From NCBI GenBank assembly GCA_051252035.1, contig JBPOFE010000001.1, positions 7,694 through 71,693 of the forward strand: a stretch of DNA of 64,000 bases. Reading direction: 5' to 3'. This stretch comes from Sulfitobacter sp. GTDB lineage: Bacteria; Pseudomonadota; Alphaproteobacteria; Rhodobacterales; Rhodobacteraceae. Each line of letters begins with the position of its first letter. Position 1 is the stretch's first letter. The position numbers and the translations under genes are program-made. The notes below the pieces were generated by a model. The model did no database searches, was not told the DNA's origin, and was given only the letters and a program-made list of their open reading frames with translations. Below, piece by piece: positions 10,889 to 16,626 of the stretch.

Positions 10889-11590
10889 TTATTCTTCGTT
10901 ATATCTGTAACCGATACCGTAGAGTGTCTCAATCGCTGAGAATTCATCGTCCGCCGTACGCATCTTTTTGCGCAGCCGTTTGATATGGCTGTCGATGGTG
11001 CGGTCGTCGACATACACTTGATCATCATAGGCAACATCCATCAGCTGATCCCGTGATTTCACGAAACCGGGGCGTTGTGCCAGCGCCTGTAACAGCAAAA
11101 ATTCGGTGACGGTCAGCGATACATCGTTGCCTTTCCAAGACACCGCATGACGCAGCGGATCCATCCGCAATTCGCCACGCTCCATCACCTTGGTTTCTTC
11201 GGTATCACCAACTTCGTCTGTCTCAACCGCGTCTTGACGGCGCAACAATGCGCGAATGCGTTCAACCAGCAACCGTTGGCTGAATGGCTTCTTGACGTAA
11301 TCATCCGCGCCCATGCGCAAACCCAGAACCTCGTCAATTTCATCGTCTTTGGAGGTCAGGAAAATCACTGGCATCGCAGTTTTCTGGCGCAAACGCTGCA
11401 ACAGATCCATGCCGTCCATGCGAGGCATTTTGATATCCAGTACGGCCATGTCGGGAAGTTTCTTGTTGAACGCGTCCAACGCTGCTTGCCCGTCATTATA
11501 TGTTTCCACCTCAAAACCTTCAGCTTCGAGAGTCATTGAGACTGACGTCAGGATGTTCCTGTCGTCGTCCACCAATGCAATTTTTGACAT
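10889..11590 (-). CDS. chvI: OmpR-family response regulator ChvI
   Basis: [39 protein letters not shown]; divergent from pckA. Confidence 0.96.
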
Positions 11591-11962
11591 TGCCTGTTTC
11601 CTTTTCACTGCTCAATTATCGTTTTTTGTTTTTCATTATTGATCACCATATTTGCCCATCGAATCAATCTCTAAGTGCGAATCATCTGCGGTTCCGGCCC
11701 TATTTTCGCCACAATTTGGTTAGGAATGGCTAAATTGCCGCACTTTCGCGTCAGCCGTGAAGCTAAGATTTTAGGCAACAACCCAGTCAAAGACCTCGGA
11801 TGCGCCAAAGATCGCTATGATGGCGCTAACTGCGTCAAACCTGCCTGTTCATATCGCGAACCCTCGTGTTAAGACCCGCATTATGACCAGATCGGTCACG
11901 GGTGAGACCACCCATTTCAGCAAGAGATGCGCCCTAAATTCGCGCAGTACAGGAGACACCAT

Positions 11963-13561
11963 ATGACATCTGGCCGGGTAAACCCCCAGTTTCGCCTTGA
12001 AGATCAACAGATCAATGGGCTTGGAAATGTCTATTATAACCTGATGGAACCTGCGCTTGTTGAAACCGCGCTTAAGCGTGGCGAGGGCACCTTGGGCAAT
12101 GGTGGCGCATTCTTGGTCACCACCGGGAAATTCACGGGTCGGTCGCCAAAAGACAAACATGTCGTCAAAACCGACAGCGTTGCCGATACGATCTGGTGGG
12201 AAAACAACGCCGAAATGTCACCTGAAGGATTTGACGCTCTTTACACGGATATGGTCGCGCATATGCAGGGCGGCGATTATTTCGTACAGGATTTGGTGGG
12301 CGGTGCAGACCCCAAGCATGCGATCAACGTACGCATGATCACCGAATTGGCGTGGCACGGATTGTTCATTCGCACCATGTTGCGGCGGCCAGAGCGCGAG
12401 GCGTTGGATGAATTCATCGCCGATTTTACGGTGATCAACTGCCCAAGCTTTCAAGCGGACCCCGCCAAACACAACTGCCGGTCCGAAACCGTGATCGCGA
12501 TGAACTTTGACCGCAAGATGATCCTGATCGGTGGTACGGAATACGCGGGCGAAAACAAGAAATCTGTCTTCTCATTGCTGAATTATTTGCTGCCTGAAAA
12601 GGGCATCATGCCGATGCATTGTTCGGCCAATCACGCCACCGGAAATCCTGTAGATACTGCTGTTTTCTTTGGACTTTCTGGAACTGGCAAGACAACGTTA
12701 TCCGCCGATCCGGGCCGCACATTGATCGGTGATGATGAACATGGCTGGTCCGACAACGGCACCTTTAACTTTGAGGGTGGATGCTACGCCAAGACCATCA
12801 ATTTAAGCCGCGAAGCAGAGCCAGAGATTTACGCCACAACCGAGAAATTCGGCACAGTGATCGAAAATATGGTCTATGACGAAGAGACCAAAAAGCTGGA
12901 TTTCGAAGACGACTCACTTACGGCAAACATGCGCTGCGCCTATCCGTTGCACTACATCTCTAACGCCTCAAAAAAGGCTGTGGGTGGTCATCCCAAGAAT
13001 ATCATCATGTTGACCTGTGACGCGTTCGGCGTTTTGCCCCCCATCGCGCGGCTGACACCCGCTCAAGCGATGTACCACTTCTTATCCGGTTTCACATCCA
13101 AAGTTGCGGGGACCGAGCGTGGTGTGACCGAACCGGAACCAACATTCTCAACCTGTTTTGGTGCCCCGTTCATGCCACGGCGACCCGAAGTGTATGGCAA
13201 TCTTCTACGCGAAAAGATCGCGCAACATGGGGCAACCTGCTGGCTGGTGAATACAGGCTGGACTGGCGGAGCCTATGGCACAGGCAGCCGCATGCCAATC
13301 AAAGCCACGCGCGCACTGCTTACCGCAGCACTCGAAGGGGCGCTGGCAGATGTCGAATATCGCAAGGACAAGAACTTTGGCTTTGCCGTACCAGTGGCCG
13401 TCGATGGCGTTCCAGATATCTTGCTGGACCCGCGCCGCACCTGGGACAATGCCGAAGCCTATGACCGCCAAGCCGCCAAGCTGGTTGCGATGTTTGCCGA
13501 TAATTTTGAGCAATATGTGCCGTACATCGACAACGATGTAAAAGACGCAGCAATCGGATAG
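11963..13561 (+). CDS. pckA: Phosphoenolpyruvate carboxykinase (ATP)
   Basis: [35 protein letters not shown]; AGGAG RBS. Confidence 0.98.
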
Positions 13562-13586
13562 GAAAACCACCCTACCCGCAACTAAG

Positions 13587-13614
13587 AAAGAGCCGCATCA
13601 ACTGCGGCTCTTTT
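13587..13614. terminator. Bidirectional intrinsic terminator after pckA
   Basis: AAAGAGCCGCA-tcaac-TGCGGCTCTTTT. Confidence 0.9.
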
Positions 13615-13623
13615 GCATTTTGA

Positions 13624-14340
13624 TTATGCGGCCAGCGCTTCGAGTTCCGCACTGGGCAAATCAAGCACGAACCGAATGTCTTCGTCGCTCATGTAAACCA
13701 TGACGCATTCCAACGCTTCGGGATTGTTTTTCAGATACCACCGCAAGGCCAAAGGTTCCGCGTGCATAAAGCCCATGCGCAGACAAAAACCTTTGTACGC
13801 AACGGGTCGGGTCATGAACCCAATCACATATTCAGCGCCAAATTCCTTGATCGCGGCAAGCATGGCGCAGCGACCCAAAATACTGGATATGCCCGTGCCT
13901 CTGTATTGGCCCGGCTCACCACCCACCCATGTTTCGCCAGAATAAACCACACGACCGATGATTTTTTTGGCACCAGGTCCGGCTTTATACCGGGATCGTT
14001 CATAATCAATGTCCATTTCCGAAGGGGCAAATCCGCGGAAATTCTGACGGAAATATTCTGACACAGATTCAGTTCCAGTGGGCAACAATCGCAATGCCTG
14101 TGTGTGCATGATACGGCCTTGGCTGTCATGTCCGACAATCCAGGCTGAATTCTCGCGCTTCATATCATGTATGTCAGGGTTGAAAGGATCACCAATCCGA
14201 TGATCCGGTCGAGCTTTGGCCAAATACCAAAGGTATTCCTCAAAATCATGACCAACGGTCAAACGTACCCCAAGTTGCTTCAGAACATCGCGACTTGAGG
14301 CTTCAAACCGATCCTCTGCATCAAACCCATAAATTGCCAT
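13624..14340 (-). CDS. Hypothetical protein, probable GNAT/N-acyltransferase-like fold
   Basis: GGAGGGG RBS before ATG 14340; VYSGETWV...QYRGTGISSILGR resembles GNAT motif A; fold not verified. Confidence 0.6.
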   Translation of the reverse strand: MAIYGFDAEDRFEASSRDVLKQLGVRLTVGHDFEEYLWYLAKARPDHRIGDPFNPDIHDMKRENSAWIVGHDSQGRIMHTQALRLLPTGTESVSEYFRQNFRGFAPSEMDIDYERSRYKAGPGAKKIIGRVVYSGETWVGGEPGQYRGTGISSILGRCAMLAAIKEFGAEYVIGFMTRPVAYKGFCLRMGFMHAEPLALRWYLKNNPEALECVMVYMSDEDIRFVLDLPSAELEALAA

Positions 14341-14430
14341 TGGCCCCTCCTGCGGTTGCATTCAAGGCTAATCATAACGCATTTTACGTGTTCTGCCGCA
14401 ATATTCGCGTACAGGTCGTGTCGTCGGCGT

Positions 14431-15312
14431 TTACATGACCATATCCGGGGTCATCTGATGCAGCATTTCGTTGCTGACATCCTTAATATCCACATCATAG
14501 GTTCTGCGAACAGCCGAAATCATTGCAAAACTTTCGTCCGGAAAACGGGCACCTAACAGCAACCGCTCAAAGGAAATCGGCAACATTTTGGCCTCGGTTC
14601 CCTTCGGAAGTACCGTGTGAATGTGATCAAGCCGGGCGGACTGATTCGTTTCCACTTCGGCATATGCGACGTTGGAAAGGACGCCAAAATTACCACCACC
14701 AGGCATTTCACCCAGCGGGCGCCCGATGCTGGAACTCGAAACCGTCCAGCCAAACCATGAGACAAATGAGCTTTTTTCACCTACTTCGGTAAATAACCAT
14801 TCATTCCCCACACGCCGGAACACCGTACAAAACGGTCGGATTCTTTTGAGTGCTTCATGCTCAAGATTCCCTCCCGCTTCAGCCCATGCTTTCATCACAT
14901 CAGGCAACAAAGGCGACGTTGAGCTGAAGAGTTTACCAATTGGTTGCTGCTGCTGGAAAAAGAACCAACCATCGGGATCTTCTCGACGCAAATATTGCAT
15001 GCCGTTGACCAATTGGGACTGGCCTGACAACCAACCTTCTGCGCGAGCGATCAAATCCAAGGCTTCGGGAAGTACCATACGACCCAACTCAGTCAGCGCA
15101 TATTGCCGATCCGTCACGGCAAAAAGAGGGCCACCTTTCAACTCTTCAAGCTGCGCCACGTGACGCCGTACCGTTTGTCGCGTGCTGCACAGCTCAAGCA
15201 CCGCATGGCTCAGGTTCAATGTCGCAGCCAATGTGGTGAAGGACCGCAACATTTCAAATAACAACGGATAGCCCCGCACAGATGCTTTTGCAGGTGTCAC
15301 ACTACCATCCAT
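14431..15312 (-). CDS. LysR-type HTH fused to an atypical (PAS-like) C-terminal domain
   Basis: N-terminal LRSFTTLA...NLSHA...TRQTVRRHVAQLEE..GGPLF...LTELG; C-terminus lacks LysR effector-domain features. Confidence 0.7.
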   Translation of the reverse strand: MDGSVTPAKASVRGYPLLFEMLRSFTTLAATLNLSHAVLELCSTRQTVRRHVAQLEELKGGPLFAVTDRQYALTELGRMVLPEALDLIARAEGWLSGQSQLVNGMQYLRREDPDGWFFFQQQQPIGKLFSSTSPLLPDVMKAWAEAGGNLEHEALKRIRPFCTVFRRVGNEWLFTEVGEKSSFVSWFGWTVSSSSIGRPLGEMPGGGNFGVLSNVAYAEVETNQSARLDHIHTVLPKGTEAKMLPISFERLLLGARFPDESFAMISAVRRTYDVDIKDVSNEMLHQMTPDMVM

Positions 15313-15498
15313 GAGATAATCGTCCTGAGCAAATGGTTAACAAATCATACGTCATGGGAACAAATATCACCCATCAAGGTATGTTTCGTCAACCCATAAC
15401 GGCCTATCTATAGTTGAAATTTACTAATAGTTACTCAATTGAATGAAAGCGCACATATTTTGCAAGGTGACCGGAGTTCAACCAGAGGTCCTAAACAT

Positions 15499-15858
15499 AT
15501 GTCCCATCCCGTAGATGTTCACGTCGGTCGCAAATTAAAACAAGTACGTACATTGCGCCGTCTTTCCCAAACCGATGTTGCCCGCAAGTTAAATCTGTCG
15601 TTTCAACAAATTCAAAAATATGAAATCGGCTCCAATCGCGTCGCTGCCAGCCGCTTGTTTGAGCTTTCTCAGATTTTGGATGTCCCGCCCTCGTATTTCT
15701 TCGAAGACCTGCACGACAATGCCAATGCGGCGCCCAAAAAAGACCCTGGCATGGCAATCGTCACGGCCCTGGCCGCGATCAAAGATGAAGCCGTCAAGTC
15801 GCGTATTGTGACATTTATCGAAGACGTGTCCGGCAAAACTGTTGCCCGCCAAGGATGA
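15499..15858 (+). CDS. XRE/Cro-C1 family HTH transcriptional regulator
   Basis: VDVHVGRKL...LSFQQIQKYEIGSNRVAASRL. Confidence 0.92.
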   Translation: MSHPVDVHVGRKLKQVRTLRRLSQTDVARKLNLSFQQIQKYEIGSNRVAASRLFELSQILDVPPSYFFEDLHDNANAAPKKDPGMAIVTALAAIKDEAVKSRIVTFIEDVSGKTVARQG

Positions 15859-15861
15859 TGC

Positions 15862-16626
15862 TTAAAATACGGCGCGCCTGATTAGATTGGCTCCGGCCAA
15901 TAAAAGAACAACAAGTGTGGCGCGCCGAAAAAGGTTTTGGTCAATACGGTCCATCACCTTGCCACCAAGCCACATGCCGAACGCCGCTGGTAGTATAAGT
16001 GCCGCGGAGAACGGCCATGTTTCGGCGCGCAATACCCCAGATCCGATATGCGCGCCCAACAACGCCGCCGACCCAAGGCCATAGATCACCCCCTGAATCC
16101 GCATCTGATCATATTTGGGTGTGTCCAGCGCGGTCAGGTAAGCAACTGTTGGTGGTCCCCAGACCCCAGACATCCCCCCCATGATACCGGCGCACCCGCC
16201 AACAATCGTTTCAATCAAGGTCGTGCGTTGGGCCAGCTTGAATTGATAGCCAGACAATTGCAGCAGCACGAAAAACACCACTGGAATACCAATCGCCAGT
16301 TTCAGCACGTCGTCTGGCACCACCCGCACCATCTGTGCTGCGATCACCAATGTGACGCACCCGGCAATCAAAAATACGCGAAACAGCTTGACCGACCTCC
16401 ACGCCGCTGCTGGCCCCTGCCGCAGTGATTGCATCATGTTGCTGATCAATGTGGGCAGAATCAGCCCAGCCAGCGCATATTCTGGTGCGATAAAAAATGT
16501 CAGACCAGAAATCAGCACAAGCGGCATCGCGAATCCTACGACGCCTTTGACGAATCCCCCGCAGACCGCAATCAAAAGCGCTAAAACCAGTTGGCTCGTT
16601 GTCAAAAAAGGGAAAAATGCGTCCAT
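15862..16626 (-). CDS. TauE/SafE family sulfite exporter-like membrane protein
   Basis: GFVKGVVGFAMP and GGMSGVWGPP repeats, about 8 TM helices. Confidence 0.85.
   Translation of the reverse strand: MDAFFPFLTTSQLVLALLIAVCGGFVKGVVGFAMPLVLISGLTFFIAPEYALAGLILPTLISNMMQSLRQGPAAAWRSVKLFRVFLIAGCVTLVIAAQMVRVVPDDVLKLAIGIPVVFFVLLQLSGYQFKLAQRTTLIETIVGGCAGIMGGMSGVWGPPTVAYLTALDTPKYDQMRIQGVIYGLGSAALLGAHIGSGVLRAETWPFSAALILPAAFGMWLGGKVMDRIDQNLFRRATLVVLLLAGANLIRRAVF

Follow-up and report, generated by a model that had tools for sequence, protein, structure and literature searches.

We analysed a 64,000-nucleotide stretch of the genome of a Sulfitobacter sp. (contig JBPOFE010000001.1, positions 7,694 to 71,693 of the forward strand), hereafter called the window, and in it a block of three genes that lies between the terminator of pckA and tauE. 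Two of these genes, here called A and B, are encoded on the reverse strand, and the third, coding for an XRE-type regulator (xre), diverges from them on the forward strand. The open reading frames (ORFs) called were 13624-14361 for A, 14431-15312 for B and 15439/15499-15858 for xre. The start of A is M8 at 14340, preceded by a GGAGGGG ribosome-binding site, and homologs of A have 238 residues. The start of xre is the ATG at 15499, with an AGAGGT ribosome-binding site at 15484-15489 that is conserved in 72 loci; with this start, the spacer between B and xre is exactly 186 bp long (15313-15498). An earlier note, made from the letters of this DNA alone, had described this layout, the divergent xre gene and an AT-rich spacer of 186 bp, all of which is borne out by the ORF calls and start codons. 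It had also judged the block to be more AT-rich than its flanks, and the computed GC profiles agree with this: GC content is 49.7% in the block versus 55.2% in the window, which corresponds to the 0.6th percentile of all stretches of 2235 bp. GC content is 38.7% in the spacer, and GC at third codon positions (GC3) is 0.50-0.53 in A, B and xre versus 0.59-0.67 in their neighbours. Since ORF positions and composition figures match, the three-gene anatomy and the AT-richness are real and beyond chance. Our main finding is that the part of B that codes for its sensor domain and the whole of A are swapped, as one sharply bounded unit, between near-identical genomes. Coordinates of all features are given in Table 1.

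Table 1. Features of the A-B-xre block and its flanks (window coordinates).
Feature	Position	Strand	Description
Gene A	13624-14340	-	238 aa, GNAT-fold acyltransferase of unclassified family
B-A gap	14341-14430	-	90 nt, part of the variable cassette
Gene B	14431-15312	-	293-aa one-component regulator
B winged helix-turn-helix (wHTH)	15133-15273	-	Residues ~14-60; PF00126, E 1.8e-8
B sensor	14434-15024	-	Residues ~97-293; PAS/IclR-like; linker helix between wHTH and sensor
Exchanged unit (window equivalent)	13624-15153	-	B from codon ~54, gap, all of A
Divergent control region	15313-15498		186 bp, constant between cassette types
Tandem operator-like boxes	15329-15355 and 15351-15377		Position weight matrix (PWM) matches, 22 bp apart
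B promoter-like hexamers	15392-15387 (TTGACG), 15368-15363 (GATATT)	-	Consensus scan
XRE promoter-like hexamers	15386-15391 (TCGTCA), 15409-15414 (TATAGT)	+	Consensus scan
Palindrome TCAATTGA	15435-15442		Downstream of XRE -10; candidate XRE operator
XRE regulator	15499-15858	+	119 aa, HTH_3 and ~45-aa tail
pckA	11927-13561	+	Flanking gene
Terminator hairpin	13586-13614	+	12-bp stem, 6 GC pairs, T-run; common to convergent pckA and A
tauE	15862-16626	-	PF01925, E 3e-26

Related loci were collected with a profile of protein A, which gave 76 species-level loci, and in more than 70 of these the order chvI-pckA-A-B-XRE-(tauE)-acd was kept, acd being an acyl-CoA dehydrogenase gene on the tauE side of the block and chvI lying on the pckA side. 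The loci closest to that of the window have an A identity of 89-91%. The chvI-pckA flank was used as a phylogenetic yardstick (chvI 92-100% and pckA 84-98% conserved across loci), and co-variation was computed across 60-63 loci, with identity to the window's proteins as the measure. A and B varied together, with a Spearman coefficient of 0.80 and a partial correlation of 0.86 after removing pckA and acd; the coefficients with pckA were 0.24 for A and 0.03 for B. XRE tracked the flanks with a correlation of 0.67. In Mantel comparisons of all pairs, values were 0.71 for A-B versus 0.31 for A-flank, and 0.64 for XRE-flank versus 0.17 for A-XRE, that is, XRE evolves with the flanks. The DNA-binding part of B, the spacer and XRE follow the flanks; A and the B sensor co-vary. 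In 25 pairs of genomes the flank proteins were at least 92% identical and the A proteins less than 55%. At a threshold of 55% identity, about 8 types of A and about 10 types of B were obtained, defined on GTDB species representatives and hence between species rather than within one, and these types are scattered in mosaic fashion among Sulfitobacter, Roseobacter, Tateyamaria and relatives. Approximately unbiased (AU) tests rejected the monophyly of two flank-defined groups, both in the A tree (p 1e-58 and 1e-14) and in the B tree (p 3e-5 and 4e-4).

The exchange can be followed most clearly in a segment-by-segment comparison of nucleotide identity between Sulfitobacter sp. AS59 (L011) and an uncultured Sulfitobacter (L041). 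From acd to xre both are 95% identical, the spacer is 100% identical and the first ~140 nt of B are 98.6% identical. Identity is 45% in the rest of B and in the B-A gap and 54% in A, and from pckA to chvI it is 97%. The left boundary of the exchanged unit falls at about codon 54 of B, at the end of the recognition helix, and the right one at the end of A. A like drop in identity was found in the isolate pairs of AS59 or CW3 with HGT1, with the left boundary in the spacer. Within one type, cassettes were 85% and flanks 90% identical. Since this within-type divergence of the cassette is only slightly faster than that of the flanks, the cassette types are old alleles and not merely fast-evolving genes. 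Loci for private signalling (pherotype loci) typically show such a pattern.

Next to exchange stands linkage. In a survey of one genome per genus in 251 genera of the Roseobacteraceae, A was present in 27 genera. Full-length B adjoined A in 29 of 31 cases, and in each of the 29 places where A was detected together with a full-length B, both genes share a strand, with B as the immediate upstream neighbour. A full-length paralog of XRE was found in 19 genera, always adjoining B/A loci of the group described below as group 1, apart from two other copies. The three genes, which the earlier note had taken for one module, are thus linked and not independent, both in the 76 loci and in the 251 genera, because B adjoins A and the XRE paralog is confined almost wholly to group-1 loci. 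We had suspected from its conservation, which is above that of A and B, that XRE is an independent housekeeping regulator, and this was rejected by the same survey. About 230 of the 251 genera, and the genome of the window as well, have a different XRE elsewhere, whose identity of ~50% is confined to the HTH part and which may be the general alphaproteobacterial XRE regulator.

The loci fall into two tiers. Group 1 is found at pckA, and group 2 (L078-L088) is a paralogous lineage in unrelated genomic contexts, where the order of the regulator and enzyme genes, B' and then A', was held in 10 of 11 loci. In 8 of the 11, the enzyme gene is followed by an efflux-type transporter of the MFS (PF07690; DHA- and Bcr/CflA-like), and several have a small HTH gene divergent from B'. 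Three of these loci carry an unclassified divergent gene of ~90 aa in place of XRE, and one a divergent MBOAT acyltransferase. The group-2 enzyme of Roseobacter denitrificans, RD1_1708, is followed by an MFS gene and has no B'. An exporter after the group-2 enzyme agrees with a product destined for the outside of the cell. Outside the Roseobacter family, members of the A superfamily were found in 27 of 301 alphaproteobacterial genomes, and its profile covers 805 representative clusters overall. The neighbours of these distant genes are SecDF, MutY, an amidohydrolase, an HDAC-type deacetylase and, in one case, an MFS transporter; functional hints from such contexts were dropped, the neighbours being heterogeneous and B absent. 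In one of them (L095, 1318-4377), two tandem A-family genes lie beside a divergent gene of the histone-deacetylase type (PF00850), a layout that hints at an acetylation/deacetylation pair.

Not every B gene is accompanied by A. B lies next to pckA in all 23 same-genus genomes that were examined, and five of them have no A; there (L118, L124, L125, L127 and L128) an intact B comes next after pckA, and xre after that. Loci without A were also found in two other genera (L089 and L090). The solo B proteins are intact, with 306-312 aa and 38-40 of the 40 invariant positions kept. The five congeneric ones share H230E, at an otherwise invariant position of the sensor. The reverse case was seen in genome G182 (L092, 6086-6944), where B is frameshifted into two ORFs and the adjoining A and XRE are intact.

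Protein A had no Pfam or NCBIfam family match even at E<=1 and no match in the PDB by sequence, and 95 diverse relatives gave only 2 marginal GNAT matches against Pfam and NCBIfam. A structure model (AlphaFold2, AF2, from an alignment of 40 sequences) reached a predicted local distance difference test score (pLDDT) of 90.4 and a predicted template modelling score (pTM) of 0.89. Foldseek found 172 matches of this model in the PDB at E<=1e-3, and the 50 listed were all GNAT-fold acyltransferases, with a probability of 1.00, E ~1e-5 and template modelling (TM) scores of 0.4-0.6; among them are AAC(6'), RimJ/L-like proteins, SpeG, PAT/MddA-like proteins (PA4866, YncA), ArsN, the acyltransferase domain of NcdE, TofI and EsaI. 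The GNAT fold claimed in the earlier note is thus well supported. The sequence QYRGTG at residues 145-150 corresponds to the Q-x-x-G-x-G loop for the pyrophosphate of coenzyme A (CoA), placed after the beta4 strand (131-139) and before a helix (151-167). In the alignment of A, 21 positions are invariant, among them Y133, E136, W138, R147 and H193; within the loop R147 is invariant and G148 and G150 nearly so, and the motif is looser in group-2 proteins. Because of this loop and the 21 invariant positions, A is a constrained enzyme that is probably acyl-CoA-dependent. Its most variable part is the N-terminal third, and the N-terminal region of GNATs usually shapes the acceptor site. Of 100 group-1 homologs, 97 end in AA, mostly as ...EALAA or ...EAMAA (window 13624-13638). 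ClpXP recognises C-terminal degrons, and the tail of A looks like one of the ssrA type, which suggests a short-lived protein. Group-2 proteins end in ...VVA or ...SKG.

Several family assignments for A were tried and rejected. Membership in the LuxI family was discarded, with no PF00765 match for A or its 95 relatives, and when the profile of the A family, built from 95 sequences, was compared by hhalign with the LuxI encoded in this genome, the probability was 0.3%. A synthase of N-acyl amino acids or OlsB-like enzyme was discarded as well, with no PF13444 match for the same proteins. A is thus not a member of the families of LuxI or of N-acyl amino acid synthases, which the earlier note had named as GNAT-fold enzymes usually encoded beside their receptor. 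A role in anti-phage defence was rejected, with no PADLOC match for A or B. On another contig of the genome (C124; L112, 1336-2926), a canonical luxR (Autoind_bind and GerE) is followed, after a gap of ~95 nt, by luxI (PF00765), beside a relaxase/helicase-like gene (AAA_30), so that the organism is also equipped for ordinary signalling by N-acyl homoserine lactones (AHLs), possibly on a plasmid.

Protein B joins a LysR-type wHTH to a C-terminal domain of another kind, as the earlier note had proposed in describing it as a LysR-HTH/PAS-like fusion, and the PF00126 match (34.6 bits versus a cut-off of 26.6) upholds the LysR part of this description, while the Foldseek matches of the AF2 model (pLDDT 89) are in line with a PAS-like domain. 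The wHTH and linker helix superposed on the DNA-binding domains of OxyR, BenM and CbnR with a root-mean-square deviation of ~1-1.7 A, and structures of LysR-type transcriptional regulators (LTTRs) align to B over its first ~79 residues only; no LysR_substrate (PF03466) match was found in B. The C-terminal ~195 residues resemble the LOV/PAS protein PpSB1-LOV, with target TM-scores (TMt) of 0.57-0.59 over 110-129 columns. The likeness to IclR proteins is looser (E 3e-4, but a TM score of only ~0.2 over the whole length), and a search of B for PAS, GAF or IclR families in Pfam gave no match. Column identity is 0.75 in the HTH versus 0.42-0.48 in the sensor.

The XRE protein matches PF01381 (E 7.5e-12, 45.5 bits versus a cut-off of 23). 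According to the earlier note, it would gate a signalling pair formed by A and B, and this was not borne out: because XRE stays with the flanks while the cassette of B sensor and A changes, it looks like a constant part of the circuit rather than a gate. Its gene may serve as the output of the divergent promoter. With regard to this promoter, a PWM was built from one conserved block, and among all its matches in the 3.4-Mb genome the two tandem boxes of the window score best. A pair of boxes spaced by exactly 22 bp was present in 57 of 72 related spacers; after shuffling, any box was found in ~2 of 72. The second box holds ATGGG-N11-CCCAT (15354-15374) and overlaps the predicted -10 element of B, and the box ends 9 nt short of the predicted -35 element of xre. 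The promoter-like hexamers lie back to back (15363-15414), with overlapping -35 boxes of B and xre; they are only suggestive, since the number of matches equals the expectation from shuffling. The palindrome TCAATTGA is enriched among the related spacers, TCAATTG occurring in 39 of the 72 versus 3.3 expected. Classical LysR regulators use such a geometry of phased boxes on divergent target genes, and because the boxes have this layout, it suggests that xre is a regulated output and that B autoregulates.

The B-A gap, which contains the ribosome-binding site of A mentioned above (GGAGGGG), measures 85-95 nt in 57 of 62 loci, and no terminator was predicted in it. An RNA element in the gap was considered and rejected, with no stable fold (z -0.45) and no Rfam match. 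Since the length of the gap is fixed and it has neither terminator nor stable RNA fold nor Rfam match, co-transcription of B and A is likely from the sequence. On the other side of A, the terminator hairpin is placed between the stop codons of pckA (13561) and A (13624). The response-regulator gene chvI is divergent from pckA (window 10889-13561), an arrangement as in other alphaproteobacteria. On the xre side, tauE was tried as a part of the module and rejected, as it is convergent with xre and missing from about half of the loci.

The variation of this locus sits where specificity is expected, that is, in the sensor of B and in the N-terminal third of A. We consider it quite likely that the B sensor and A work on a common molecule or on one another, with HTH, operators and XRE as an unchanging chassis around them. 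The best specific reading, plausible though still tentative, is a matched cassette of a signal synthase and its receptor combined with constant DNA-binding and XRE parts. In such a system, B would be a cytoplasmic one-component transcription factor with a LysR-type wHTH and a PAS/IclR-like ligand domain, and A, encoded directly downstream, would be an N-acyltransferase with a GNAT fold that depends on acyl-CoA and belongs to an undescribed family; it would turn a common metabolite into a small N-acylated molecule in one step. The sensor of B would recognise this product, so that both would form a matched pair following the logic of LuxI and LuxR with unrelated parts. We infer that A makes the ligand of B and that this ligand acts as a signal. 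The constant HTH, the operators phased by 22 bp and the divergent xre would couple any type of cassette to the same output, probably xre transcription together with autoregulation of the B-A operon, B being one candidate for the protein that binds the boxes. A putative degron in the ...LAA tail would make the enzyme short-lived through ClpXP. Different lineages would carry anciently diverged types of cassette, exchanged in the manner of pherotype loci through homologous recombination. The synthase/receptor reading is backed by the solo receptors, the degron-like tail, the exporter in the paralogous operons, and the age of the alleles with their sharp boundaries.

The resemblance to known signalling systems is partial. 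As in LuxR/LuxI, a receptor gene lies directly upstream of a GNAT-fold synthase-like gene, and the luxR-luxI pair of the same genome shares this order and a gap of ~95 nt; receptors without synthase exist here as LuxR solos do there, and there can be several paralogous systems per genome (G100 and G221). In contrast to LuxI, A has a CoA-type Q-x-x-G-x-G loop and no sequence relation to that family, and B consists of a LysR-wHTH and a PAS/IclR-like domain instead of Autoind_bind and GerE, with a signal role that is putative here. With pherotype loci such as comQXP-comA of Bacillus and agrBDCA of Staphylococcus, the locus shares very divergent alleles at one site in close relatives, the joint variation of synthase and sensor part with a constant DNA-binding or output part, and sharp recombination boundaries, one of them inside the sensor gene. 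It differs from them in that there is no peptide and no histidine kinase, both proteins being cytoplasmic, and in that the polymorphism is seen between GTDB species representatives, with type-specific signalling that is putative here. With classical LTTRs, B shares a wHTH and linker helix that match those of OxyR, BenM and CbnR with a deviation of ~1 A, and a divergent promoter with two phased boxes like the pair of regulatory and activation binding sites (RBS/ABS), one of which overlaps the predicted promoter of the regulator; the effector domain of B is PAS/IclR-like and not of the LysR_substrate fold, which is like that of periplasmic binding proteins.

A number of observations weigh against a synthase/receptor pair. 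The best fold matches of A are ordinary acetyltransferases, which AHL synthases do not surpass in score; by sequence A is unrelated to LuxI, and TofI and EsaI appear only as ordinary matches of the GNAT fold. A-family genes in other alphaproteobacterial families lack B and lie in unrelated contexts. Related boxes are seen in group-2 loci only where an XRE neighbour exists, and the tandem boxes could belong to XRE rather than to B. Adjacent genes in one recombination tract co-vary by linkage alone, and co-variation of sensor and enzyme is equally expected if both recognise one external substrate. The earlier note had proposed a synthase/sensor pair for a non-AHL acylated signal. Of this, the pairing gains support, as A and the B sensor diversify jointly and change hands as a unit; that they are synthase and sensor of a signal is a further step, since equal co-variation would be expected of a module that senses a substrate and modifies or exports it.

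Such a module is the strongest alternative, and we regard it as rather unlikely. In it, B would sense a toxic metabolite that comes in, such as an amine or an analogue of an amino acid, for example from phytoplankton, and induce A, which would N-acetylate the compound, for export by the MFS transporter in group 2, and the types would be adaptations to different compounds. In Bacillus subtilis, the MFS efflux pump Blt and the spermidine acetyltransferase BltD are encoded together (blt-bltD) with a dedicated regulator, bltR. Like them, group 2 has a GNAT and an efflux-type MFS transporter in one operon beside a dedicated regulator, in 8 of 11 loci, and a GNAT is likewise followed by an MFS gene at RD1_1708; gene order and regulator family are different, and we know of no allelic cassette exchange for blt. 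Several of the best fold matches of A are small-molecule N-acetyltransferases (SpeG, PA4866, YncA, ArsN and AAC(6')), tandem A-family genes lie beside an HDAC-type deacetylase in another alphaproteobacterium, and a shared substrate would make sensor and enzyme co-diversify too. However, an intact solo B is present in at least 7 genomes where there is no enzyme to control, the ssrA-like ...LAA tail on 97 of 100 group-1 enzymes is unusual for detoxification, and very old alleles exchanged between near-identical genomes are met more typically at social or conflict loci than in detoxification genes. That the group-1 locus of the window has no exporter or pump co-transcribed with A tells against a detoxification module and against a synthase whose product is a signal alike.

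It is improbable that A and B are instead protein partners, with the C-terminal domain of B binding the A protein and A acetylating a protein N-terminus, a lysine or an aminoacyl-tRNA, so that their co-variation would stem from a protein-protein interface, in the extreme case as a GNAT toxin with its antitoxin. The upstream regulator with a conserved DNA-binding N-terminus and a C-terminus that varies with the GNAT does resemble type II antitoxins and toxins, as in TacT-TacA, AtaT-AtaR and KacT-KacA, and protein acetyltransferases of the RimJ/RimL type are among the best fold matches. Nevertheless, the A family occurs without B in many genomes, A is intact beside the frameshifted B of G182, and A'-MFS occurs without B' in R. 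denitrificans; A without an intact B would be lethal if A were a toxin, and this weighs against the toxin form. Besides, B is a large protein of 293 aa with the fold of a ligand domain, the genes are separated by 90 nt rather than overlapping, the labile-looking partner with its degron-like tail is the GNAT and not the regulator, and the coupling of the paralogs to MFS points to small-molecule chemistry. As a type II GNAT toxin-antitoxin pair, A-B was rejected: B is not a small antitoxin of the ribbon-helix-helix (RHH)/DUF1778 kind, and PADLOC gave no match. Finally, it is very improbable that A and B are uncoupled neighbours, with B regulating other genes (for example xre only) and A hitch-hiking in the recombination tract: linkage makes neighbours co-vary, no B-type box was found in the B-A gap, and both solo B and B-less A exist, but adjacency from B to A is kept in two paralogous lineages and at least 10 unrelated genomic contexts, nearly every full-length B of the 251 genera adjoins A (29 of 31), and the gap is fixed at 85-95 nt and free of terminators.

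A search of a library of papers gave nothing on RD1_1708, on these families or this locus, or on a module of GNAT and LysR type in either Sulfitobacter or Roseobacter; the database records of both families read 'hypothetical protein', and neither family has an entry in Pfam or NCBIfam. Roseobacters are dominant in communities associated with phytoplankton, and to our knowledge their social behaviour has so far been explained almost entirely by AHLs. It is possible, if somewhat doubtful, that the locus represents an undescribed system of cell-cell signalling in Roseobacter, with a new GNAT family as synthase, a LysR-HTH/PAS-like receptor, many private pherotypes exchanged as cassettes, and eavesdropping solo receptors.

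Should the module serve detoxification, its allelic diversity would point to varied host-derived toxic amines. If it is a signal system, it would be a new chemical language with privacy at the strain level in a key marine group. As a pherotype locus, it would be the first case in Gram-negative bacteria of a polymorphism of the comQXP/agr kind made from small-molecule components that are cytoplasmic. Among the metabolites of roseobacters are orphan esters of N-acyl amino acids, and the synthase of N-acyl alanine methyl esters is still unknown (PMC11580390). With a signalling function, A would be a candidate enzyme family for such orphan N-acylated metabolites of roseobacters.

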